A stretch of DNA of 64,000 nt from an uncultured Eubacteriales bacterium (GTDB lineage Bacteria > Bacillota > Clostridia > Oscillospirales > Acutalibacteraceae): the NCBI GenBank assembly GCA_964369405.1, contig CAYJGB010000001.1, positions 98,408 to 162,407 on the forward strand, written 5' to 3'. The notes under the pieces are model-generated. The model saw only the letters and a list, made by a program, of their open reading frames with translations, made no database searches and had not been told where the DNA came from. Position 1 is the stretch's first letter; the number at the start of each line of letters is the position of its first letter. This document shows, one piece after another, positions 2,661 to 48,550 of this stretch. Made by a program: the position numbers and the translations under genes.

Positions 2661-4304
2661 ATGATAAATATTCATCAAAGATTTTGTGAAGAAACATTTG
2701 AAAACGGAGAATTAGTAGACTTTAAGATTAAGTATGAAGAAAATTTTAACTTTGCATATGATGTACTAGACGAAATTTCAAAAGCTGAACCTAAAAGAAG
2801 AGCTATGTTTTGGTGCAATGATAAAGGTGAAGAAAAAACTTTTACATTTGAAGATATGACACGTTATAGTAATATGGCTGCAAATATGTTTACAGATTTA
2901 GGCATTAAAAGAGGAGATACAGTTGTTTTAATACTTAAAAGACATTATCAATTTTGGACAGCATTATTAGGACTTCATAAAATTGGAGCAGTTGGAATAC
3001 CGGCTACCAATTTGCTTACAAAAAAAGATTTAGTATATAGATTTAACGCAGCAGATGTAAAAGCTGTAATTTGTACAACGCATGGAGATATAATTAAGCA
3101 TATCAACGAGTCTTTACCTGAGTCACCAACAGTTAAAGTTAAGATAAGTGTTAATGGTGAAGCAGACGGCTATGTAAATTATGATGAGCAATTAGAAAAA
3201 TACAGTGATAAACTTGACAGAATAGAAACATTATCATCAGACCCTATGTTACTTTACTTTACATCAGGTACAACAGGGCTTCCTAAAATGGTGTGGCACG
3301 AACAATCATACCCTTTAGCACATATAGTAACAGCTAAGTACTGGCACAATGTAGTACCAGACGGGTTGCATTTAACGCTTTCAGATACTGGTTGGATGAA
3401 GGCTATGTGGGGTAAACTTTATGGACAATGGTTAATGGAAGCTGGTATTTTTGTATGTGATTTCGACAAATTCACACCAACAGATTTATTAAAATTATTC
3501 TCAAAATATCAAATAACAAGTTTCTGTGCACCACCTACAATGTATAGATTTTTCATCAAAGAAGATTTAAGCCAATACGATTTATCAAGCATTAAACACG
3601 CAACAATTGCAGGAGAGCCACTAAACCCAGAAGTGTTTAATCAATTTTACAAAGCAACAGGCTTAAAACTTATGGAGGGTTTTGGACAAACAGAAACAAC
3701 TCTTACGCTATTTAACTTGATTGGAACAAACCCTAAACCTGGTTCAATGGGAAGACCATCACCTGCGTACAAAGTTGACTTAATAGACTTTGATGGTAAA
3801 TCTGTACAGCCTGGTGTAGTTGGAGAAATCGTTATAAGAACAGACGAAGGTAAAGTTTGTGGTATGTTTAATGGTTATTACAAAAACGAAGATTTAACTA
3901 AAAATGTTTGGGATAATGATATATATCATACTGGAGATACAGCGTGGAAAGATGAAGACGGTTATTACTGGTATGTAGGAAGAACAGACGATATAATTAA
4001 ATCATCTGGATACCGTATAGGACCATTCGAGATAGAGAGCGTAATAATGGAGCATCCATGTTGTTTAGAATGTGCGATAACAGGAGCACCAGACGAAATA
4101 AGAGGACAAGTGGTAAAAGCTACAATAGTATTAGCAAAAGGGTATGAACAAAGCGAAGAGTTAAAAAAAGAAATACAAGATTATGTTAAGAAACAAACAG
4201 CGCCATATAAATACCCACGAATAGTAGAATTTGTAGATGAACTACCAAAGACAATAAGTGGAAAGATACGCAGAACAGAAATAAGAGGAGATAAAAGAGA
4301 TTAA
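2661..4304 (+). CDS. AMP-dependent acyl-CoA synthetase/ligase (medium-chain/acetyl-CoA synthetase-like)
   Basis: AMP-binding signature YFTSGTTGLPKMV, plus GYYWYVGRTDDIIKSSGYRIGPFEIE and C-terminal PKTISGKIRR. 547 aa. Confidence 0.85.
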   Translation: MINIHQRFCEETFENGELVDFKIKYEENFNFAYDVLDEISKAEPKRRAMFWCNDKGEEKTFTFEDMTRYSNMAANMFTDLGIKRGDTVVLILKRHYQFWTALLGLHKIGAVGIPATNLLTKKDLVYRFNAADVKAVICTTHGDIIKHINESLPESPTVKVKISVNGEADGYVNYDEQLEKYSDKLDRIETLSSDPMLLYFTSGTTGLPKMVWHEQSYPLAHIVTAKYWHNVVPDGLHLTLSDTGWMKAMWGKLYGQWLMEAGIFVCDFDKFTPTDLLKLFSKYQITSFCAPPTMYRFFIKEDLSQYDLSSIKHATIAGEPLNPEVFNQFYKATGLKLMEGFGQTETTLTLFNLIGTNPKPGSMGRPSPAYKVDLIDFDGKSVQPGVVGEIVIRTDEGKVCGMFNGYYKNEDLTKNVWDNDIYHTGDTAWKDEDGYYWYVGRTDDIIKSSGYRIGPFEIESVIMEHPCCLECAITGAPDEIRGQVVKATIVLAKGYEQSEELKKEIQDYVKKQTAPYKYPRIVEFVDELPKTISGKIRRTEIRGDKRD

Positions 4305-6374: not shown

Positions 6375-7004
6375 ATGGAAAAAATAAAAAGTAAGATAAA
6401 GCCGATAATAATTATAACAGTATCAGTTATAGTATTAATATCTGGAATATTTGTATATTTATTTAGAATAAACTATTTTAATATTTTAGAGATAATTGTA
6501 TCTCCAAATAATACGACAATTATTACAGTGTATGAAGATACATCTGCTGAGCTAGTTAGAGATGCATCAGGCAACAAAATAATGAGTAAATTTTATTACG
6601 ATGTTAAAGGTGATTTAAATTTTGACAATTATGGTTTATATACTTATAATGGAGTATATATATCACCTTGTCATGAAAACGTAGTTTTATCAACGATTGA
6701 TGATAACGGGAGAATTATTCTTGAAGTAGTTTATTCTTTGAATGATGTTCATTATGATTTAACAAATTCAATACGTCAGAGTATTATAAGTAGTAAAAAA
6801 ATTAAAGAGTTGTCTTATGCACTAGATTATAATATACAAGTCGATGTGATAAAATGGACTGATGTAAAAGATGTTATGACAGTTGAGTTTGAATACATAA
6901 ATAGCGAAGATAAAAAAACTGCAGGAACACTCGATTATAATTGTGTTACTGAAATGATTACTAATATTGATTATGAAACAGAAGTCGAAAGTGATGACGA
7001 ATAA
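6375..7004 (+). CDS. hypothetical membrane-anchored protein
   Basis: ATG at 6375 sits 7-8 nt after AGGGG, whereas the track start 6366 lies inside the RBS. N-terminal TM segment (PIIIITVSVIVLISGIFVYLF) and an acidic C-terminus. No family recognised. Confidence 0.55.
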   Translation: MEKIKSKIKPIIIITVSVIVLISGIFVYLFRINYFNILEIIVSPNNTTIITVYEDTSAELVRDASGNKIMSKFYYDVKGDLNFDNYGLYTYNGVYISPCHENVVLSTIDDNGRIILEVVYSLNDVHYDLTNSIRQSIISSKKIKELSYALDYNIQVDVIKWTDVKDVMTVEFEYINSEDKKTAGTLDYNCVTEMITNIDYETEVESDDE

Positions 7005-9425: not shown

Positions 9426-9592
9426 ATGGGGCTGTCGCTTTTAGAAAATTGTTCGTCATATTATACAATCCAGTTGTAGGGGCAAAATCCATTTTCGCCC
9501 GAAATTCTTCAAATTCAAAAAAATCGGGAGCATATGGAATGCTCCCCTACAAAGATTTGGTAATATTAACATTAGTGCGTAAGCCCCATCAC
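9426..9592 (+). repeat. structured intergenic repeat, family A, copy 1
   Basis: Reverse-complement copy at 13081-13250. Imperfect terminal inverted repeats (ATGGGGCTGTCGC / GCGTAAGCCCCAT). Internal hairpins at 9480-9500 and 9526-9546 are enclosed by TTGTAG/CTACAA. No ORF. Confidence 0.85.
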
Positions 9593-11487: not shown

Positions 11488-13071
11488 TTGCCTGACTTTT
11501 TAAACGAGATAAGTAAAAGAAGAACTTTTGCAATTATATCTCACCCAGATGCCGGAAAAACAACTTTAACAGAGAAATTATTACTTTACAGTGGTGCGAT
11601 AAATGTTGCAGGAACAGTAAAAGGTAAAAAATCTTCAAAGCATGCAGTGTCTGACTGGATGGAAATAGAAAAACAAAGAGGTATTTCAGTAACATCATCT
11701 GTGCTACAATTTAAGTATGATGGATATTGTATTAATATACTAGACACACCAGGACATCAAGACTTTTCAGAAGACACATATAGAACTCTTATGGCAGCAG
11801 ATAGTGCAGTAATGGTTATTGATGCATCAAAAGGTGTAGAAGCACAAACTATAAAATTATTTAAAGTATGTTTGCTAAGAAATATACCAATTATAACATT
11901 TATAAATAAAATGGATAGGGAAGCAAAAAACCCATATGAATTGTTAGAAGATATAGAAAATGTACTAGGAATAAATACATATCCAATGAATTGGCCTATT
12001 GGATGTGGAAAAGAGTTTAAAGGTGTATATGATAGAAAAGAAGAAAGCATATTATCATTTACAGCAAACAATGGACAAAAAGAAGTAGAACAAAGAGAAT
12101 TAAAAGTAAATGATATTGACTTAGAAAATGAAATTGGCAAATTGTTTAAAGTGCAATTACTTGAAGATATAGAGCTTCTTGATATAGCGGGAGATGATTT
12201 TGATATAAATCAAGTAAGAGAAGGAAAGCTTACACCAGTATTTTTTGGTTCAGCACTAACAAATTTTGGAGTAGAACCATTTTTAAAAGAATTCTTAACA
12301 CTTACAACATCACCACTACCTAGAGAAACAAAAGATGAAGAAATAGAACCAACTGATGAACATTTTTCAGCATTTGTATTTAAAATACAAGCAAATATGA
12401 ACAAAGCACATAGAGATAGAATAGCATTTATGAGAATATGTTCAGGAAAATTTGAAAAGAATATGGAAGTATATCATGTTCAAGGTGGCAAAAAGATGAG
12501 GTTATCTCAACCACAACAAATTATGGCACAAGAAAGAGAAATAATAGAAGAAGCATATGCAGGAGATATAATTGGAGTGTTTGACCCAGGTATATTTTCT
12601 ATAGGAGATACAATATGTCTAGCAAATAAAAAAGTAGAGTTTAAAGGTATACCAACATTTGCACCAGAACATTTTTCATTAGTAAGACAAAAAGATACAA
12701 TGAAGAGAAAACAGTTTATAAAAGGTATATCACAAATTGCACAAGAGGGAGCAATACAAATATTCCAAGAACTAGGAGCTGGAATGGAAGAAGTAATTGT
12801 AGGAGTAGTAGGAACATTACAATTCGAAGTGTTGGAGTATAGACTTAAAAATGAATATAATGTAGATATTATAATGAGTGGATTGCCATATCAGTTTATA
12901 AGATGGATAGGCAATGAAGATATTGACCCTAAGACCTTAGATTTGTCATCAGATACAAAAAGAATACAAGATTTAAAAGGTAATTATTTATTATTGTTTA
13001 CTAGCCAGTGGACAATCAATTGGGCGTTAGAACATAATAAAGATTTAATTTTAAACGAATTTAGCGTGTAA
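11488..13071 (+). CDS. prfC: peptide chain release factor 3
   Basis: RRTFAIISHPDAGKTTLTEKLLL, DTPGHQDF and NKMD GTPase motifs in RF3 context. Likely TTG start at 11488, 7 nt after GGAGG and in frame with the track ORF that starts at 11452. Confidence 0.9.
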   Translation: MPDFLNEISKRRTFAIISHPDAGKTTLTEKLLLYSGAINVAGTVKGKKSSKHAVSDWMEIEKQRGISVTSSVLQFKYDGYCINILDTPGHQDFSEDTYRTLMAADSAVMVIDASKGVEAQTIKLFKVCLLRNIPIITFINKMDREAKNPYELLEDIENVLGINTYPMNWPIGCGKEFKGVYDRKEESILSFTANNGQKEVEQRELKVNDIDLENEIGKLFKVQLLEDIELLDIAGDDFDINQVREGKLTPVFFGSALTNFGVEPFLKEFLTLTTSPLPRETKDEEIEPTDEHFSAFVFKIQANMNKAHRDRIAFMRICSGKFEKNMEVYHVQGGKKMRLSQPQQIMAQEREIIEEAYAGDIIGVFDPGIFSIGDTICLANKKVEFKGIPTFAPEHFSLVRQKDTMKRKQFIKGISQIAQEGAIQIFQELGAGMEEVIVGVVGTLQFEVLEYRLKNEYNVDIIMSGLPYQFIRWIGNEDIDPKTLDLSSDTKRIQDLKGNYLLLFTSQWTINWALEHNKDLILNEFSV

Positions 13072-13080
13072 TACTTAAGG

Positions 13081-13250
13081 GTGATGGTGCTGTCTCACTA
13101 ATGTTAATATTCCCAAATCTTTGTAGGGGGGAGCATTCTATATGCTCCCTATTTTTTGTAAATTTGAAGAATTTTGTGCGAAAATGAATTTCGCTCCTAC
13201 AACTGGATTGTATAATATGACGAACAATTTTCTAAATGCGACAGCCCCAT
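13081..13250 (-). repeat. structured intergenic repeat, family A, copy 2 (inverted relative to copy 1)
   Basis: The reverse complement aligns to 9426-9592 along its whole length. The first ~55 nt differ at one position. It has the same internal hairpins (GGGAGCAT..ATGCTCCC, GCGAAA..TTTCGC). Confidence 0.85.
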
Positions 13251-15130: not shown

Positions 15131-15227
15131 GCAAATTAACGATAAATTTACACAATTTGTTAAATTATATTAAAAAAATTAGTATTTACTTATATGTTGA
15201 TAAAAATTGCTGAAAAGAAGTAGTACT

Positions 15228-15377
15228 CTTTATCTAAACTTACGGTCGCCCGCCATTCAAATCGAAGATTTGAATGAAGATGCACCAACACACTCCTTGT
15301 AAGGTTTAGGAAAGTGTTGGTGCATCTATGCTCGAAACTAAAGTTTCGAGTGCGGGCGACCGTAAGTTTAGATAAAG
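15228..15377. repeat. structured intergenic element, family B copy 1 (predicted four-way junction)
   Basis: P1 is a 26-bp perfect stem (15228-15253 with 15352-15377). P2 15254-15276. P3 15279-15291 with 15314-15326. P4 15331-15350. Second copy at 41068-41204. Confidence 0.85.
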
Positions 15378-15385
15378 GCCTACTT

Positions 15386-16669
15386 TTAATTTTTTTTCTT
15401 ACTATCTTCTATTAAACTCTCTTTTGCTACTGCAAGCATTAATTTAATTCTGTTTTCTTGATTAACTCTAGGTGCTCCTGGGTCATAGTCTATTGTAACT
15501 ATATTTGCACGCTCATCAATACTTTTTATTTTTCTTATCATACCTTTACCATTTATGTGGTTTGGTAAACAGCCAAATGGTTGAGTACATACAATGTTTG
15601 GGTATCCAGATTCTGCAAGCTCTAACATTTCAGCAGTTAAAAGCCAACCTTCACCCATCTTACTACCATAACCTACTACATCTTTTACTAATTCTTTAGT
15701 GTGTAAATAAGGCGATGGAGCAACAAAACCATATTTTTTGGCACTGTCTATTATTAAATTTTCCATTTTAGATAAATAGTTAAAGAATAATTTAACTATG
15801 TTAAATTTAATTTGATTACCACCATACAAGATAATATCTTCTGCTCTGTTATCTACCTTAAATAGCATAAAAGCCATTATTCCAGGTATACATACTTCAC
15901 AGTCTTGCTCTTCTAAAAACTTTTCTAAATTGTTGTTTCCAAGTTTAGCATATTTAACATATATTTCACCAACAATTCCAACTTTCACTTTTGGAACTAC
16001 ATTTAATTTAATCTCTGAAAAAGACTTAGCGATTTCATCTAAAATTATAGTTTGCTCTTTTACAGTAAAGCCTTTACCATTTTTAAATTTATCAGTAAGC
16101 TTATCAATCCAAGTTTGTACTAGTTTATTACTTTCACCTTTGTTTACTTCATAAGGTTTTGTTTGATTATTTAGAAGCATAAGAGTATCGCCATATACTA
16201 ATGCGCCAATAACTCTTCGCATCATAGGTAAAGTAAAGCTAAAACCACTATTTTTTTCAAGCCCTGAGAGGTTAAGTGAAATTACAGGAACTTTTTCAAA
16301 ACCAGCTTTTTTAAGAGCTTTTCTAAGTAAATGAATGTAATTAGAAGCTCTACAACCACCACCAGTTTGAGTAATCATTAAAGCAGTTTTATTAACATCA
16401 TAATTTCCACTTTGCAAAGCATGAATAAATTGACCAATTACAAGAAGGGCTGGATAACAAGTATCATTGTGAACATATTTTAAACCAACTTGAGCAATTT
16501 CAGGACCATCAGTATCTAGTAATATAGTTTTGTAATCAAACATATCAAATACATTTTTAATAAATGTAAAATGTATAGGTGCCATATTAGGTAGAAGTAT
16601 GGTGTATTCTTTTTTCATTTCTTTAGTAAATAGTAATCTACCAGTATTATCATATTGTAATTGTGCCAT
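15386..16669 (-). CDS. 2-hydroxyacyl-CoA dehydratase-family (HgdB/D-component-like) protein
   Basis: 427 aa with the CoA-dehydratase-like Cys pattern (DTCYPAL, GGGCRASNY, CTQPFGCLPNH). Immediately downstream of the double-activase gene. Confidence 0.7.
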   Translation of the reverse strand: MAQLQYDNTGRLLFTKEMKKEYTILLPNMAPIHFTFIKNVFDMFDYKTILLDTDGPEIAQVGLKYVHNDTCYPALLVIGQFIHALQSGNYDVNKTALMITQTGGGCRASNYIHLLRKALKKAGFEKVPVISLNLSGLEKNSGFSFTLPMMRRVIGALVYGDTLMLLNNQTKPYEVNKGESNKLVQTWIDKLTDKFKNGKGFTVKEQTIILDEIAKSFSEIKLNVVPKVKVGIVGEIYVKYAKLGNNNLEKFLEEQDCEVCIPGIMAFMLFKVDNRAEDIILYGGNQIKFNIVKLFFNYLSKMENLIIDSAKKYGFVAPSPYLHTKELVKDVVGYGSKMGEGWLLTAEMLELAESGYPNIVCTQPFGCLPNHINGKGMIRKIKSIDERANIVTIDYDPGAPRVNQENRIKLMLAVAKESLIEDSKKKN

Positions 16670-20314: not shown

Positions 20315-21163
20315 ATGAAAAGTAAACAATATGCAGTAATAGGACATCCAATAGGACATACTATGTCACCATTTATACATAAAAGGTTGTTTGACCTTGC
20401 ACAAATAGATGCAAAATATTCAGTATTAGATATTTCGCCAGAAAATTTAAAATTAGAATTTAATAATACATTAAAAAATTTAGATGGATTTAATATAACA
20501 ATACCACATAAAGAAAATATAATTAATTGTTTAAATGGATTAGATGAAAAAGCAAAATTATATGGCAGTGTAAATACAGTAGACAATAAAAATGGAATAT
20601 ACACAGGCTATACAACTGACCCAGATGGATTTATAAAAGCATTAGAAGCTTATGACATTCCGTTTGAAAATAATGTTATGATTTTAGGGACTGGTGGAGT
20701 AGCTAGAACTATGGCATACGAAGCAGTAAAAGCTAATTGCAATCTAACTATAGCAGTTAGAAAAGAAGATATAGAAATATCTAACAAGTTAATAAAAGAG
20801 ATAACAACAAATATTGAAGCAAGTAGTATTAAAACGTGCTTAATTAGTGAGATAGATAATTCACAAATAGATTTACTTATTAATGCAACACCTATTGGAA
20901 TGTATCCAAGAGTTGATAATTGCCCTGTAAGTGACAATATAATCAATAATTGTAAAAATGTATTTGATGCAGTATATAATCCACTGGAAACTATACTGGT
21001 TAAAAAGGCAAAGGCACAAGGAAGTAATGCAGTAGGTGGAATGTCAATGCTTGTATGGCAAGCAGTAGTAGCTCATAATATATGGGACGGCAGTATTTAT
21101 AATAAAGAAGATATAGACAAATTATGTACAGATAGTGCAAACGAACTTAAAAACAATTTTTAA
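20315..21163 (+). CDS. aroE: shikimate dehydrogenase
   Basis: YAVIGHPIGHTMSPFIH, NITIPHK, SVNTV and GTGGVAR motifs. ATG at 20315 is 9 nt after AGGAG. Confidence 0.9.
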   Translation: MKSKQYAVIGHPIGHTMSPFIHKRLFDLAQIDAKYSVLDISPENLKLEFNNTLKNLDGFNITIPHKENIINCLNGLDEKAKLYGSVNTVDNKNGIYTGYTTDPDGFIKALEAYDIPFENNVMILGTGGVARTMAYEAVKANCNLTIAVRKEDIEISNKLIKEITTNIEASSIKTCLISEIDNSQIDLLINATPIGMYPRVDNCPVSDNIINNCKNVFDAVYNPLETILVKKAKAQGSNAVGGMSMLVWQAVVAHNIWDGSIYNKEDIDKLCTDSANELKNNF

Positions 21164-21180
21164 AAGATAGAAGGGATAAT

Positions 21181-21696
21181 ATGTTAGAAAATAAAAATAT
21201 AGTGTTGTGTGGCTTTATGGGCTGTGGAAAATCTACAATAGGAAAACAATTAGCAAAAGAGCTTAACAGAGAGCTAATTGATTTAGATGATTATATAGAG
21301 CAAAAAGAAAAAATGAAAATAACAGAAATTTTTTCGCAATATGGAGAAGAACACTTTAGAGATTTAGAGCATATGGCAGTAAAAGAATTATCAAATAAAA
21401 ACGGTTTAGTGATAAGTTCAGGTGGAGGGACACTAATATTTGAGAGAAATGTAGAAATATTAAAAGAAAATAGTGTAATAATATATTTAGAGTCATCACT
21501 TGAAGAAATCAAAGATAGACTTAAAAATGACACAAAAAGACCTCTACTTCAAAAGCCAAATAAAGATGAAATAATGCAAGAGTTATACAATAAAAGAGTA
21601 CCAATTTATAAAAAATCAAGCGATTATACAGTGAATTCAGATAAAACTATAAAACTTATAGTGAAAGATATTTGTGAATTAATTGTAAATAAATAA
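21181..21696 (+). CDS. aroK: shikimate kinase
   Basis: Walker A GFMGCGKSTIG, then LIDLDDYIE and SSGGG. 171 aa. Confidence 0.9.
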   Translation: MLENKNIVLCGFMGCGKSTIGKQLAKELNRELIDLDDYIEQKEKMKITEIFSQYGEEHFRDLEHMAVKELSNKNGLVISSGGGTLIFERNVEILKENSVIIYLESSLEEIKDRLKNDTKRPLLQKPNKDEIMQELYNKRVPIYKKSSDYTVNSDKTIKLIVKDICELIVNK

Positions 21697-23015: not shown

Positions 23016-23119
23016 AATAAAATTATATTGTCCCACCGATTAAATAATTATTTAGTCGGTGGCACTCTTAAAATTTTACAAATGTTCAAATTTATATTAC
23101 AATAGATTGGGTGGTTAAA

Positions 23120-39153: not shown

Positions 39154-41043
39154 TTGAAAACATCAGTTAAAATTGTGTTGTTTTTAGCAGTTATTTTTTC
39201 ATGTGTCTTTTTATTTACTTCTTGTGAAGAAAAATCTGTAGACGTTGAAAATGTTGTTAGCTTTAATGATAAATTTGAGGGTGACAGAACTATTACTTTG
39301 CACGTTGGCCAGTTGTTAAGTGGTAGAGATGATTTAAAGGCTCAGTTAGATGAGATTATAGATAATAATACACCTTCTGTTTTTGAAACTTCGATTGATG
39401 AAACAGAAGAGGGACTTAAATATAATTTTAAATTAAGCTTTACATCTGAAAAAGATTACGAAAATAAAATTAGTTCCGTTCTCGGGCAAGAAACTGATGT
39501 GCAGTTAAGCACACCAGACAATACACTTACTAAAGGTTGGCGTTATGTCGAAGATTTTGACGGTATGGAATTAATTTCATTTATTGCTAATGCAGCAGTA
39601 GAAAGCAATTACAAAGACTTATTAGTCACTTATAATAGTATTTCTAATGTAGTAAACTTTGATGGTAAAGTGAAAATTAGTGATACTAGTATAGTCGACA
39701 TTAGTGATGTGTCAGGTTTTTCAGTTACTGATATTTCTATTGATACTACAAATAATAAACAAGATAGCTATGATAGACGATTTACAATCACTTTTCCACA
39801 AACAACTTACGACAAAATGGGTGAGGATTTATTAACTCTTATGGAAGAAAGAACAGATGAGTTAGCAGATTATAGCGGTTGGACTCAACAAGGAAATAAT
39901 CAAGAGTTTCAAGTGTTTTACAAAGGTGTAAGTCTTGTCGAATTGCAAGCAGTTACTTCTAAGTTTTTAGATTGCGATAGCCAATATTTATATTATGGAG
40001 ATGAAAATAATAGTAGTACTCCACTTGCTGAGCAGTTAGTTTTTGAAGAAAGATTTAACTTATTAAGCTTTATATCTGTAGATGGAAAAACTGTACCTAT
40101 AACTTATAAATATTCACTACCGATTAAAACTACATATGGTGATGGTTTAGTGCTTGAAGATGGTTCATGGGATAAAAACGGCAAGTGGATAGACGGGGTA
40201 TATACTTTAAGTAGCTCCAATGAGAGCGTTGCTGTAAGAGTGCCTGACGGTATGCAATATAAAATAGACGGAGTAGCTGTAACTGTTGAAAATTTGGGTG
40301 ATAACAAATTTGTGCGTGAATTCGACTTTTTATATGATAAGAACAGTGGTGTAGATGGTTGCAATTATGCAAGTAATTATTTTCAACAGCAAGGAGTAAA
40401 AGCTACAGTTACTAAAAATGATGTAAATTTGATATGTTCAGTAAAAGAAGAGGGAACAACACAAGAGATAGATAAGTTTTTTAAAGAGTTATTAGGTGAA
40501 GATAACGAGTTTTTACGAACAGAGAATACAAGTGCTATGGCAGTTGTAACTGATTTGAAATTAGTAGACTCAGTAAATATAACAAATATGCTTAACGAAG
40601 AAAATATGAACATAACATATAAATACACAATGAAAAATAAAGGGCAAGAAAATATAATTTCATTAGATGGACAAGATAACAGCGAAGATGGAGAAAAAGT
40701 TTCATCACAACTAGATAAGAATGGTGATTATGTTATAGAGCTACAAGGTGGAGAAAATACTATAGAGCTTATATCAACAGTGCCATATCAAGATGGTATA
40801 ATTACATATAGTGTTATAGCAGGAGTAATGTTATTGTTAACTGGTGTGGCTATAGTGTTATTGTTAAGGAAATCAAAAGGATTAAAGATATTTGCTTTTA
40901 ATAAAAAGAATGGTGCAACAGATGAAAGTGCAAATGAAGATAAAGAAGATGATGTTGAGCAGATAACAGACGAAAATATAAAAGATAATGATAACGAAGA
41001 TGATACATTGTATAAGTATTATGATGATGAAGATTTATTATAG
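39154..41043 (+). CDS. predicted lipoprotein with C-terminal TM anchor and acidic tail, function unknown
   Basis: Signal peptide with a lipobox-like LFTSC. The C-terminal TM segment (VIAGVMLLLTGVAIVLLL) is followed by a D/E-rich tail. 629 aa. Confidence 0.65.
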   Translation: MKTSVKIVLFLAVIFSCVFLFTSCEEKSVDVENVVSFNDKFEGDRTITLHVGQLLSGRDDLKAQLDEIIDNNTPSVFETSIDETEEGLKYNFKLSFTSEKDYENKISSVLGQETDVQLSTPDNTLTKGWRYVEDFDGMELISFIANAAVESNYKDLLVTYNSISNVVNFDGKVKISDTSIVDISDVSGFSVTDISIDTTNNKQDSYDRRFTITFPQTTYDKMGEDLLTLMEERTDELADYSGWTQQGNNQEFQVFYKGVSLVELQAVTSKFLDCDSQYLYYGDENNSSTPLAEQLVFEERFNLLSFISVDGKTVPITYKYSLPIKTTYGDGLVLEDGSWDKNGKWIDGVYTLSSSNESVAVRVPDGMQYKIDGVAVTVENLGDNKFVREFDFLYDKNSGVDGCNYASNYFQQQGVKATVTKNDVNLICSVKEEGTTQEIDKFFKELLGEDNEFLRTENTSAMAVVTDLKLVDSVNITNMLNEENMNITYKYTMKNKGQENIISLDGQDNSEDGEKVSSQLDKNGDYVIELQGGENTIELISTVPYQDGIITYSVIAGVMLLLTGVAIVLLLRKSKGLKIFAFNKKNGATDESANEDKEDDVEQITDENIKDNDNEDDTLYKYYDDEDLL

Positions 41044-41067
41044 ATGAAATTTTAATATTTAGAAAAA

Positions 41068-41204
41068 CTTAGGGGCACCCGCCCATTCAAATCAAAGATT
41101 TGAATGATAAGGCACCGACACAACAAAGGTTATGATTTATAAGAATGTTGGACGGTGCCTTAAATGAGCGAAACTTTCAGTTTCGCTTGGCGGGTGCCCC
41201 GAAG
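41068..41204. repeat. structured intergenic element, family B copy 2 (predicted four-way junction)
   Basis: P1 41068-41083 with 41189-41204. P2 41084-41106 is near-identical to copy 1. P3 41109-41124 with 41147-41161. P4 41167-41187. Architecture and linkers match 15228-15377. Confidence 0.85.
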
Positions 41205-41434
41205 ACTTTGTATAAAGCATATAATAATGGCTAGTTACGCAATATAATTTATAGTTTAATGTTAAAGCAGATACTGAACTTACAAATGTTTATTTGAAAT
41301 TGATTAATAAATTAGTAATTATTAATATAAAATTATTTAAAACTTATATAATATTTAAAAAAATTTAAAAAACACTACTATTCTGATAAAAAATGTGTTA
41401 TTATACTATAAATAAATATGAAAGTGGTAGATTT

Positions 41435-42151
41435 ATGCTTAAATATGTTTTATTTGATTTAGACGGTACATTACTTCCTATGAATCAAGAGGAATTTGTA
41501 AACTGTTATTTTAAGTTATTATGTAAAAGTTTAAAGCCTCATTATCCAGATAGCCAAAAACTTATTAAAAGTGTCTGGGCTGGAACAAATGAAATGATGA
41601 ACAATGATGGCACAAAATTAAACTCAGAAGTGTTTTGGGAAAAAATGACTCAAATTTATGGTGACAATGTTTTAGAAGATAAACACTTGTTTGATAGTTT
41701 TTATAAAAACGAATTTAATTTAGCAAAAGAAGCGACTAAACCAAATAAACTAGTTTATGAGTGTATAGAGTTGTTAACTAATAAAGGATATAAACTTATT
41801 TTAGCCACTAATCCGATATTTCCTTTAATAGCTACACAAAACAGAATTAAATGGGCTGGGTTATCATCAGATATGTTTGACTATATTACTTCTTATGAAA
41901 ATTCATCTTTTTCAAAAAGCAGTATAAACTACTATAAAGAAGTATTATCTAAAATCGGAGCAGAAGCTACAGAATGTTTGATGGTTGGAAATGACGTCTT
42001 AGAAGATATGAAAGTATCGCAAATAGGTATGGATACATATTTAATTAAAGATTGTATAATTAATAGTAATAATATAGATATTTCAAAATTTAAACAAGGG
42101 GATTTTGAAGGATTTAAAGAGTACATATTAAACTTACCAGATTTAAAGTAA
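41435..42151 (+). CDS. HAD-superfamily hydrolase
   Basis: MLKYVLFDLDGTLLP (DxDGT motif I) and a GNDVLEDM-type motif IV. The ATG at 41435 is preferred. Confidence 0.8.
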   Translation: MLKYVLFDLDGTLLPMNQEEFVNCYFKLLCKSLKPHYPDSQKLIKSVWAGTNEMMNNDGTKLNSEVFWEKMTQIYGDNVLEDKHLFDSFYKNEFNLAKEATKPNKLVYECIELLTNKGYKLILATNPIFPLIATQNRIKWAGLSSDMFDYITSYENSSFSKSSINYYKEVLSKIGAEATECLMVGNDVLEDMKVSQIGMDTYLIKDCIINSNNIDISKFKQGDFEGFKEYILNLPDLK

Positions 42152-48046: not shown

Positions 48047-48120
48047 GCGGATGTAGTTTAGTGGTAGAACTTCAGCCTTCCAAGCTGATCGTGTGGGTTC
48101 GATTCCCATCATCCGCTCCA
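48047..48120 (+). tRNA. tRNA-Gly (anticodon TCC)
   Basis: Acceptor GCGGATG/CATCCGC. Anticodon arm TCAGC-CTTCCAA-GCTGA. T-loop GGTTCGATTCC. Encoded CCA. Confidence 0.9.
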
Positions 48121-48151
48121 AAAGATTTTAATTTAATAATCTTAAACTTAT

Positions 48152-48228
48152 GTGCCAATAGCTCAGCCGGATAGAGCAACTGCCTTCTAAGCAGTAGGTC
48201 AGGGGTTCGAATCCCTTTTGGCACGCCA
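48152..48228 (+). tRNA. tRNA-Arg (anticodon TCT)
   Basis: Acceptor GTGCCAA/TTGGCAC. Anticodon arm ACTGC-CTTCTAA-GCAGT. T-loop GGTTCGAATCC. Encoded CCA. Confidence 0.9.
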
Positions 48229-48266
48229 ATGGTGACTAAGAATTTTATTCTTAATCACCATTATAT

Positions 48267-48344
48267 GGTGGATATAGCTTAGTCGGTTAAAGCGCCAGTT
48301 TGTGGCACTGGAGATCGTCGGTTCGAATCCGATTATCCACCCCA
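48267..48344 (+). tRNA. tRNA-His (anticodon GTG)
   Basis: Extra 5' G(-1) then GTGGATA/TATCCAC. Anticodon arm CCAGT-TTGTGGC-ACTGG. Encoded CCA. Confidence 0.9.
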
Positions 48345-48347
48345 TAT

Positions 48348-48423
48348 GATTCATTAGCTCAGCTGGCAGAGCACTTGACTTTTAATCAAGGTGTCCGGAG
48401 TTCGATTCTCCGATGAGTCACCA
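48348..48423 (+). tRNA. tRNA-Lys (anticodon TTT)
   Basis: Acceptor GATTCAT/ATGAGTC (one G-U pair). Anticodon arm CTTGA-CTTTTAA-TCAAG. Encoded CCA. Confidence 0.9.
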
Positions 48424-48455
48424 TTAGACGGACAAGTATAAACTTGTCCGTCTAA
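48424..48455 (+). other. strong hairpin inside the tRNA cluster (processing site or internal terminator)
   Basis: 14-bp perfect stem TTAGACGGACAAGT/ACTTGTCCGTCTAA starting immediately after tRNA-Lys. A weaker hairpin lies at 48231-48259 after tRNA-Arg. Confidence 0.5.
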
Positions 48456-48475
48456 TCAAAATTTATTATTAATAT

Positions 48476-48550
48476 TGGGCTATCGCCAAGCGGTAAGGCA
48501 ACGGACTTTGACTCCGTCAGTCGCTAGTTCGAATCTAGCTAGCCCAGCCA
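48476..48550 (+). tRNA. tRNA-Gln (anticodon TTG)
   Basis: Acceptor TGGGCTA/TAGCCCA. Anticodon arm ACGGA-CTTTGAC-TCCGT. Encoded CCA. Confidence 0.9.

Follow-up and report, generated by a model that had tools for sequence, protein, structure and literature searches.

The 64-kb stretch of DNA analysed here (hereafter the window) has a GC content of 29.9%, and the proteins flanking the element described below point to an uncultured Acutalibacteraceae-like Clostridia genome. Between positions 41058 and 41217 the window carries a GC-rich element, which we will refer to as copy 2, predicted to fold into a four-way junction in which a closing helix (P1) is arranged around three hairpins (P2, P3 and P4); a second element of the same layout, copy 1, is located at 15227-15378. 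These two copies, together with six further members in two related genomes, represent a previously undescribed repeat family from uncultured Acutalibacteraceae. We propose, at a probability of roughly 0.55, that its members are lineage-restricted, dispersed, GC-rich nested-palindrome DNA repeats whose arms are kept perfect mainly by template switching. According to this proposal the element is primarily a DNA-level, non-autonomous dispersed repeat and not a dedicated RNA gene. In broad kind it would stand with BOX, SPRITE, MITE and REP repeats and with the palindromic GC clusters of mitochondria.

Architecture of the two window copies

The core of the four-way junction in copy 2 spans 41072-41200, with P1 closing around P2, P3 and P4, and remnants of an outer closing repeat lie on either side of it. 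The parts of copy 2 are as follows.

41058-41071: outer 5' part of the closing repeat, degenerate (TTTAGAAAAACTTA), homologous to copy 1 15229-15242 by alignment and flank comparison
41072-41083: 5' arm of P1 (GGGGCACCCGCC), with 12 bp of perfect pairing to 41189-41200
41084-41106: P2 hairpin (CATTCAAATC-AAA-GATTTGAATG), stem identical in copy 1 and in L024, a member in a related genome
41108-41162: P3 long hairpin, base helix TAAGGCACCG/CGGTGCCTTA, with an inner CAACA/TGTTG and an AT-rich tip
41167-41187: P4 hairpin (AGCGAAACT-TTC-AGTTTCGCT), flanked by G41166 and T41188
41189-41200: 3' arm of P1 (GGCGGGTGCCCC), pairing with 41072-41083
41201-41217: outer 3' part of the closing repeat, degenerate (GAAGACTTTGTATAAAG), resembling the 3' ends of copy 1 and of another member, L025b (GCCCCGAAGATTTGTA)

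A preliminary description of the window had placed this element at 41068-41204. The sequences it gave for the four helices, and all of its other statements about the sequence, agree with the letters, including the ATG that precedes P4, the single T linker that follows it and the AAGGTT in the P3 loop. The architecture therefore stands as described but the range does not, as homology to copy 1 reaches further, from about 41058 (TTTAGAAAAACTTA) to 41217 (TTTGTATAAAG). Pairing of 41058-41071 with 41201-41217 is only partial, and by comparison with copy 1 the outer part of P1 has decayed in copy 2.

The plus strand of copy 2 has a predicted folding energy of -76.8 kcal/mol (z = -11.7), which none of 200 shuffled sequences equals, and the minus strand behaves similarly (-75.8 kcal/mol, z = -12.2, with 0 of 200 shuffles as good). 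The fold is unchanged under DNA parameters. Copy 1 adopts the same layout with still greater stability (-106.3 kcal/mol, z = -18.3) and is organized as follows.

15227-15378: copy 1, with a 27-bp P1 (15227-15253 and 15352-15378), P2 at 15254-15276, P3 at 15278-15327 and P4 at 15331-15350

An extra 8-bp flank helix (15216-15223 with 15380-15387) lies outside P1 of copy 1, and its P2 (15254-15276) has the stem of copy 2 with a GAA loop. In a sliding scan the two copies are the most stable 150-nt stretches of the 64 kb, ahead of a cluster of five tRNAs on the plus strand (48047-48547), and the P2 pattern occurs twice in the window against 0.01 occurrences expected by chance.

Although the two copies share their layout, their helices differ by changes that preserve pairing. 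P4 is AGCGAAACT/AGTTTCGCT in copy 2 and CTCGAAACT/AGTTTCGAG in copy 1, and P3 is TAAGGCACCG/CGGTGCCTTA in copy 2 and AGATGCACCAACAC/GTGTTGGTGCATCT in copy 1. Base pair by base pair the comparison gives the following.

P1: 8 pairs the same, 3 double changes still paired, 1 broken (at the outer edge of P1)
P2: 10 the same, no double change, none broken
P3: 6 the same, 4 double changes still paired, none broken
P4: 7 the same, 2 adjacent double changes still paired, none broken

There are thus nine double changes that preserve Watson-Crick pairing, together with one paired indel, an extra C:G at the P1/P2 junction. The view that the copies do not derive from a recent duplication is borne out, one architecture having been kept through pair-preserving changes.

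Members of the family in related genomes

The sample comprises eight members at seven sites in three genomes, within about 200 kb made up of the 64-kb window and about 140 kb from relatives, whose contigs were picked by close homologues of the window's flanking genes. The six further members come from two related uncultured Acutalibacteraceae genomes (ENA ERZ23500064 and ENA ERZ27277072); the five from ERZ27277072 (about 58 kb) were detected as extreme minimum free energy (MFE) outliers together with GC-rich inverted 9-mers.

L024, 6547-6669 (ERZ23500064): beside an 89% identical dehydratase-like protein, orthologous to the copy 1 site, its orientation to the gene unchanged
L025a, 3262-3392 (ERZ27277072): short-long-short four-way layout
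L025b, 13045-13172 (ERZ27277072): hairpin order short-short-long
L025c, 16123-16254 (ERZ27277072): hairpin order short-short-long
L025d, 21146-21272 (ERZ27277072): short-long-short four-way layout
L009, 2383-2555 (ERZ27277072): short-long-short layout, the same place as L173 8383-8555

All members are extreme MFE outliers within their own locus. They are intergenic, about 105-175 bp in length, and the genomes that carry them are all AT-rich (27-33% GC). In every one of the eight copies P1 is an inverted repeat of 10-27 bp, or 10 to 27+8 bp when the flank helix of copy 1 is included.

ERZ23500064, which holds the orthologue of copy 1, is the closest relative. The L024 element begins 2 nt past a stop codon and reads GGGGGTCGCCC-g-CTCGAAACTtttAGTTTCGAG-ca-AGAATACCCACTGTATCAGttgtaattttaCTGATACAGTGGGTATTCT-a-CATTCAAATCgaaGATTTGAATG-GGGCGACCCCC, followed by TTTT. 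Its P2 and P4 stems are identical to those of copy 1, its P1 lacks two junction base pairs on both arms as well as the outer part, and its P3, in a sequence unlike that of copy 1, still forms a perfect 19-bp stem. In ERZ27277072, L025a, L025d and L009 have the layout of the window copies with wholly different P2, P3 and P4 sequences, and L025b and L025c, which sit at loci unrelated to each other, are duplicates of 93% identity. The preliminary description called the P2 hairpin invariant; this is the case only in the window lineage (copies 1 and 2 and L024), and the P2 stem is different in L025a, L025d and L009.

The part shared across the family is the inner core of P1, GGTCGCCC/GGGCGACC or its variant GGGGCA[A/C]CCG, with inner P1 taking the forms ACGGTCGCCC[G/A]CC, GGTTGCCCAC, CTCGCCC or GGGGCA[A/C]CCG[T/C]C across copies. 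Two weaker traces are also shared, a C/A-rich 5' arm of P3 (CACCAACAC, CACAACA) and an outer end motif, GTTAGCACAA/TTGTGC, seen in L024, L025a, L025b and L025c.

There are likenesses between hairpins of different elements. The arm of P3 in L025a (3294-3329, AACCTC--TTGCCC) is similar to the P1 arm of L025d (21139-21158, AACCTCGGTTGCCC), and the P3 core of copy 1 (GCACCAACAC) is similar to P4 of L025a (GCACAACAC) with a paired one-base deletion. Judged by these likenesses, hairpin modules may have been shuffled or nested between elements, as for mitochondrial GC clusters (PMC4478555).

L025b is also flanked by an inverted repeat (TTTGTTTTGGTGG on the left at 13012-13024 of L025, CCACCAAACAAA on the right at 13186-13197), which has the same sequence as the arms of its own internal hairpin CCACCAAAC/GTTTGGTGG and is absent from its sister L025c. 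This arrangement suggests that sequence was exchanged between the flanks and the internal hairpins, or that an older copy, nested or partial, is present.

We saw no element in 16 kb from a relative of 42% GC, nor in one of 48% GC, nor in a 2.4-kb contig from an 84% relative. Scans with P2 gave 7 matches in genome contigs and 14 in metagenomes, all of them isolated palindromes in unrelated taxa and with no surrounding architecture, and scans of viral contigs for P2, and for P4 plus the junction, gave none; because P2 differs between genomes these P2-based scans were mis-targeted and say little on the distribution of the family. Scans of viral contigs with the P1 core returned chance matches, mostly in GC-rich phages, and those of lower GC lacked a four-way fold. 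Blastn against plasmid and phage records found no match. At the gathering score, Rfam matches within the window are limited to the five tRNAs (48047-48547), and at E<=10 there is nothing better than E ~1 in 40900-41400; L025, L009 and L024 have no match either.

Pairing, strand symmetry and type of change

The question raised in the preliminary description was whether a wider alignment would show compensatory or random substitution. Helices of the six short-long-short copies were aligned by hand and analysed in Python. Of 272 hand-defined pairs 270 are Watson-Crick, the remainder being one G·T and one mismatch, although this fraction is inflated by construction since the helices were delimited as paired runs. 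From one genome to another the helices have largely unrelated sequences, and 42 of the 50 aligned pair columns contain more than one pair type. When the 3' partners were shuffled among sequences, pairing fell from 99.6% to a mean of 64% and a maximum of 72% (2000 shuffles). The wider sample shows the same pair-preserving pattern as the two window copies.

The MFE structures, in which the count of G·U pairs is less affected by the hand-delimiting of helices, contain 449 pairs with 4 G·U on the plus strand and 447 pairs with 3 G·U on the minus strand for the eight elements together, and the energies of the two strands differ by 0.3-6 kcal/mol. Selection on RNA only normally tolerates G·U pairs and gives strand asymmetry. 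The near absence of G·U pairs together with the strand symmetry is the pattern of constraint on a DNA palindrome.

The changes themselves are often larger than single pairs. Adjacent double changes of several bases are found in P4 between copy 1 and copy 2 (CT/AG to AG/CT) and in the long hairpin between L025b and L025c (TA/TA to AG/CT). Indels at the P1 junction are matched on both arms, between copies 1 and 2 and between copy 1 and L024, and P1 has been extended by non-homologous outer helices in copy 1 (15216-15223/15380-15387) and in L025a (TGCAC/GTGCA). The 3-nt loop of P2, GAA in copy 1 (15254-15276), is TTC without a shift of register in the orthologous L024 copy (6634-6656); the loop is thus inverted, and the 10-bp arms are identical in the two.

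Template switching between inverted repeats is described as giving GAA to TTC inversions of 3-nt spacers between arms of 10-11 bp (PMC8604942), and template switching can also create and maintain perfect stems and so mimic compensatory evolution (PMC8794818). On its sequence, the flip of the P2 loop reads as the signature of spacer inversion by intermolecular template switching (PMC8604942). We propose that the perfect arms, the multi-base changes and the inverted P2 loop all arise because of template-switch homogenisation. The preliminary description saw selection on structure as the simplest reading of the divergence. Divergence has indeed preserved the structure, but the scarcity of G·U pairs, the strand symmetry, the multi-base changes and the inverted loop argue against that reading as the simplest one.

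Presence, absence and placement of the elements

At the sites of several members, related genomes carry something else, as follows.

Copy 1 site in the L025 relative (82%): a plain intrinsic terminator
Copy 1 site in the L027 relative (81%): a plain intrinsic terminator
Copy 1 site in the L028 relative (84%): the same two flanking genes with a bare 131-nt spacer
Copy 2 site in L009/L173: cyclase, 604-aa homologue and HAD-family hydrolase gene, with a 112-nt spacer that has a small hairpin and no element
L025a site in the window, 23031-23066: spacer from DAHP synthase to prephenate dehydrogenase (81% identical protein), with a simple hairpin only

Because relatives have ordinary hairpins or nothing at these sites, elements appear to have been gained or lost at individual intergenic sites. 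The hairpin at 23031-23066 of the window (GTCCCACCGA-ttaaataattatttag-TCGGTGGCAC) has arms that look like the P1 core of L025a (GTCGCCCACC/GGTGGGCGAC) but are each 2 nt shorter; the family may have left a collapsed "solo-P1" here, or the likeness may be due to chance.

The proposal that these elements sit at gene 3' ends in either orientation is upheld in the larger sample, with all seven sites on the 3' side of a gene and orientation relative to the upstream gene mixed: copy 2 is sense, and copy 1/L024, L025a and L009 are antisense. At five of the seven sites the element lies 0-28 nt past a stop codon, and in all six co-directional spacers it is closer to the upstream stop than to the downstream start. 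L025b and L025c are positioned just after canonical terminators, L025d is between convergent genes, and L025a, within an aro gene cluster, is 42 nt ahead of the next start codon. The elements are surrounded by syntenic housekeeping genes, of which those beside the window copies are listed below.

39154-41043, plus strand: gene upstream of copy 2, encoding a 629-aa predicted lipoprotein without a Pfam domain, with its stop 14-28 nt before the element
41435-42151, plus strand: gene downstream of copy 2, encoding a HAD-family hydrolase; the open reading frame opens at 41393 and 41435 is the likely start
15386-16669, minus strand: gene beside copy 1, encoding a DUF2229 / 2-hydroxyacyl-CoA dehydratase-like protein, with its stop 7 nt from copy 1

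The closest relatives of the 629-aa protein are just 59-61% identical. The stop codon of its gene is the TAG at 41041-41043, so that an element starting at 41068 does begin 25 nt past a plus-strand stop, as had been stated.

A T-run follows P1 directly in L024 (TTTT) and loosely in copy 1 and L025a, and is absent in copy 2, L025b, L025c and L009; in copy 2, P1 is followed by GAAGACTTTGTAT. A terminator scan found nothing in 40800-41600 around copy 2 and nothing at copy 1 either, and no promoter-like site was found ahead of either window copy. Since only some members have a T-run, intrinsic termination is not a family-wide property. The terminator or insulator role suggested earlier is likewise not general, as copy 2 has no T-run, two members come after terminators and one lies 42 nt before a start codon.

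The L024 contig ends about 80 nt past the element (6670-6748), after an ordinary bidirectional terminator-like hairpin (AAAAAAGGTATGGCGAATGTTCGCCATACCTTT). The repeat may be what breaks the L024 assembly at that point.

Proposed template switching and alternative explanations

A plausible mechanism is that replication-associated template switching between hairpin arms would keep the arms complementary, such that a change in one arm would be either erased or copied to the opposite arm. Copying between arms would give rise in one step to multi-base "compensatory" changes, to paired indels, to outward growth of P1 and occasionally to inversion of a loop. Copies no longer able to fold would be lost, and elements would persist only where they do little harm, just past stop codons or terminators. 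Upon read-through from the upstream gene, in either orientation, the element is predicted to yield an extremely stable four-way RNA, with effects on 3'-end stability plausible; in L024, and probably in copy 1, the P1 stem with its T-run appears to have replaced the native intrinsic terminator or to protect the 3' end in its place. At some loci, though not in general, termination or 3' stabilisation at the RNA level is possible. The architecture, the family and its distribution, the divergence that keeps pairing, the symmetry of the strands and the position at 3' ends were observed directly, whereas upkeep by template switching, mobility and co-option as terminator are inferences.

Several points weigh against this proposal, in addition to the inflated fraction of Watson-Crick pairs noted above. 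Four-fold degenerate sites are just 53-59% identical between the window and L024 genomes, whereas the P2 stem, P4 stem and P1 core are identical at 54 of 54 positions; full conservation against near-saturated synonymous sites points to constraint at the level of sequence, by function or recognition, and template switching alone does not explain it. P3, on the other hand, drifts freely in sequence between the window and L024. The conserved P2 and P4 stems and P1 core reflect either a real sequence constraint in the window lineage or repeated overwriting from a conserved source. Mobility was not seen directly, there being no within-species presence/absence polymorphism, and no transposase gene adjoins any element in the window or in the relatives' loci. 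P1 has a conserved inner core but outer ends of variable length and sequence, the opposite of a terminal inverted repeat (TIR) recognised by a transposase. The sample, finally, is of eight copies only, and template switching and selection at the RNA level are not mutually exclusive.

It is conceivable, though we consider it rather unlikely, that the element is a functional structured RNA in the 3' untranslated region of the upstream gene, acting to terminate transcription as a branched structure, to insulate against read-through or to block 3' exonucleases, and maintained by selection on the RNA fold. In favour of this reading, no site departs from the 3' side of a gene and at five of seven the element is 0-28 nt past the stop; the fold is extremely stable; and the P2 stem, P4 stem and P1 core are strongly conserved although synonymous sites are saturated. 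The reading would also fit with the ordinary intrinsic terminators that relatives have at the copy 1 site, with the TTTT that follows P1 in L024, and with the lack of any other hairpin between either window upstream gene and the next gene. However, P1 of copy 2 is not followed by a T-run, the terminator scan is empty at both window copies, L025b and L025c lie downstream of canonical terminators, L025a is 42 nt before the next start codon in the aro gene cluster, and orientation relative to transcription is mixed. The virtual absence of G·U pairs and the equally good folding of the antisense strand would be unusual for RNA-only selection, and there is neither an Rfam family nor a promoter-like site ahead of either window copy.

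The inverted-repeat ends invite comparison with a classical MITE (miniature inverted-repeat transposable element), a deleted insertion sequence (IS) mobilised in trans by a transposase recognising P1 as its TIRs, with the internal hairpins incidental. Ends of 10-27 bp with sequence common to copies at unrelated loci, the near-identity of L025b and L025c at two loci of one genome, the differences in presence and absence among related genomes and the recurrence of the end motif GTTAGCACAA/TTGTGC in L024, L025a, L025b and L025c all agree with such an origin, which we nonetheless find quite unlikely. Copies flanked by target-site duplications would indicate a simple MITE, and no duplication consistent in length or sequence was found; a search with +/-4 nt slack at each end gave only short, inconsistent, AT-rich direct repeats, with the true ends uncertain and no empty site from the same species. 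Inner P1 is the most conserved part and the outer termini the least, P1 ranges in length from 10 to 27+8 bp, no transposase gene is adjacent (the sole nearby recombinase is a phage-type integrase in the prophage-like L173 stretch), and there is no likeness to plasmid or phage records. Perfect internal hairpins kept through complete turnover of sequence would not be expected if they were incidental. A conserved structure with a short conserved box and free stem sequence is known from attC sites, IS200/IS605 and REP (repetitive extragenic palindromic) hairpins, and by analogy the element might be a folded single-stranded DNA or cruciform site read by its shape, which an integron-integrase-like tyrosine recombinase, an HUH/Y1 enzyme or a junction-resolving enzyme copies or moves, with the conserved P1 core as recognition box and the variable hairpins as spacers. 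The conserved architecture with most stem sequence free and only a short box at the junction base conserved, the strictly Watson-Crick helices on both strands and the location immediately past stop codons would suit such a site. We hold it to be very unlikely, as no candidate enzyme gene was found beside any element in about 200 kb (a search that was not exhaustive), no extrahelical bases or other asymmetry mark one strand, and the flanking genes are syntenic housekeeping genes and not cassettes. Nearly as doubtful is the suggestion that the four-way fold itself is the recognition unit, with a structure-specific enzyme or an RNA-binding factor reading the junction and the P1 core and the hairpin sequences mattering little; if true, gut Clostridia would have a new class of mobile or regulatory elements defined by their shape, with template switching as built-in proof-reading.

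Some further candidates were rejected: a retron noncoding RNA (no reverse transcriptase gene is adjacent to either window copy), a self-cleaving four-way-junction ribozyme (no internal loops, no conserved unpaired core and no Rfam match), a tRNA-like or short interspersed element (SINE) origin (the stems are far too long) and a CRISPR repeat (no array is present). L031 and L032, two assemblies of one species, seem to differ in length by 142 nt, but this was also rejected as an insertion polymorphism; the difference is a run of Ns (L032 5924-6023), a scaffold gap in a coding region with tandem repeats.

Comparison with known repeats

Integron attC sites lie directly past a gene stop and have a conserved folded structure, with a short box at the stem base and a variable, sometimes branched, distal part. 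Unlike these, the elements described here have no GTTRRRY/RYYYAAC box at the base of P1 and no extrahelical bases, and their stems are perfect and strand-symmetric; their neighbours are syntenic housekeeping genes and not cassette arrays, and no integron integrase was seen. They also differ from REP sequences and bacterial interspersed mosaic elements (BIMEs), which are imperfect palindromes of about 20-40 nt with a conserved head motif, often in clusters and linked to a RAYT transposase, in being 105-175 nt long with four helices and no recurring short head motif.

Compensatory changes have been reported for the bcr1 repeat. With bacterial MITEs in general the family has in common a length of 100-200 bp, inverted-repeat ends, highly base-paired predictions, multiple intergenic copies and presence/absence differences. 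In the present family, however, the outer termini are the least conserved part and no cognate IS was found within the approximately 200 kb read, and the element is GC-rich in an AT-rich genome whereas MITEs are characterised as AT-rich (PMC3049150).

The BOX elements of pneumococci and streptococci (PMC3049150) are similar in general layout, being small interspersed intergenic repeats of Firmicutes with a closing boxA/boxC stem around independently folding internal modules. The comparison is one of layout, and the host lineage here is a different one, Acutalibacteraceae. Tandem copies of one boxB make up the interior of a BOX element, whereas here three different hairpins occur in a fixed four-way order; as the three internal hairpins differ within each copy and are not tandem repeats, the elements do not have the boxA-(boxB)n-boxC composition. 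BOX stems are in addition imperfect and conserved in sequence, and those described here are perfect, with sequences replaced completely from one genome to the next. The SPRITE repeat is terminator-like, is found preferentially near the 3' ends of coding sequences and has been proposed as a co-opted terminator (Croucher et al. 2011, PMC3049150), and the present family resembles it in that such repeats are tolerated mainly downstream of genes.

A further likeness is to the GC clusters of yeast and other fungal mitochondria (Wu and Hao 2015, PMC4478555), GC-rich palindromes scattered through the intergenic DNA of a very AT-rich genome, for which a transposase is not known, turnover is fast, hairpin units merge or shuffle into composites and substitutions are concentrated in loops. 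These are, however, mitochondrial and far shorter (about 18-60 bp, single hairpins), and a fixed four-way architecture is not described for them. Template-switch homogenisation (Mönttinen and Löytynoja 2022, PMC8794818; Abraham and Hazkani-Covo 2021, PMC8604942) accounts for perfect arms, multi-base changes and spacer inversion, but it is a mutational mechanism and not an element family, and it leaves dispersal and the conservation of P2, P4 and the P1 core unexplained. What is distinctive of the present family is the combination of a fixed four-way layout, three different perfect hairpins, sequence turnover with perfect pairing, conservation of the junction-proximal P1 core and the lack of a recognisable target-site duplication.

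A second, unrelated repeat of 170 nt is also present in the window, at 13081-13250 (plus strand) and 9426-9592 (minus strand), the two copies being 90% identical, inverted and about 3.5 kb apart. In each a hairpin, GGGAGCAT-loop-ATGCTCCC, comes before a T-run (9526-9546 and 13129-13149), and there is no Rfam match. This may be the "family A" of the preliminary description.

Implications

These results carry a caution for RNA discovery, where many double substitutions without broken pairs are usually taken as proof of a functional RNA. The family is a natural example of a covariation trap, in which the covariation most likely stems from a mutational mechanism acting on DNA and not from selection on RNA. 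As the elements sit where relatives have ordinary terminators, they are also a possible example of repeats co-opted as terminators. If abundant genome-wide, they would break assemblies, and could serve as a strain marker.

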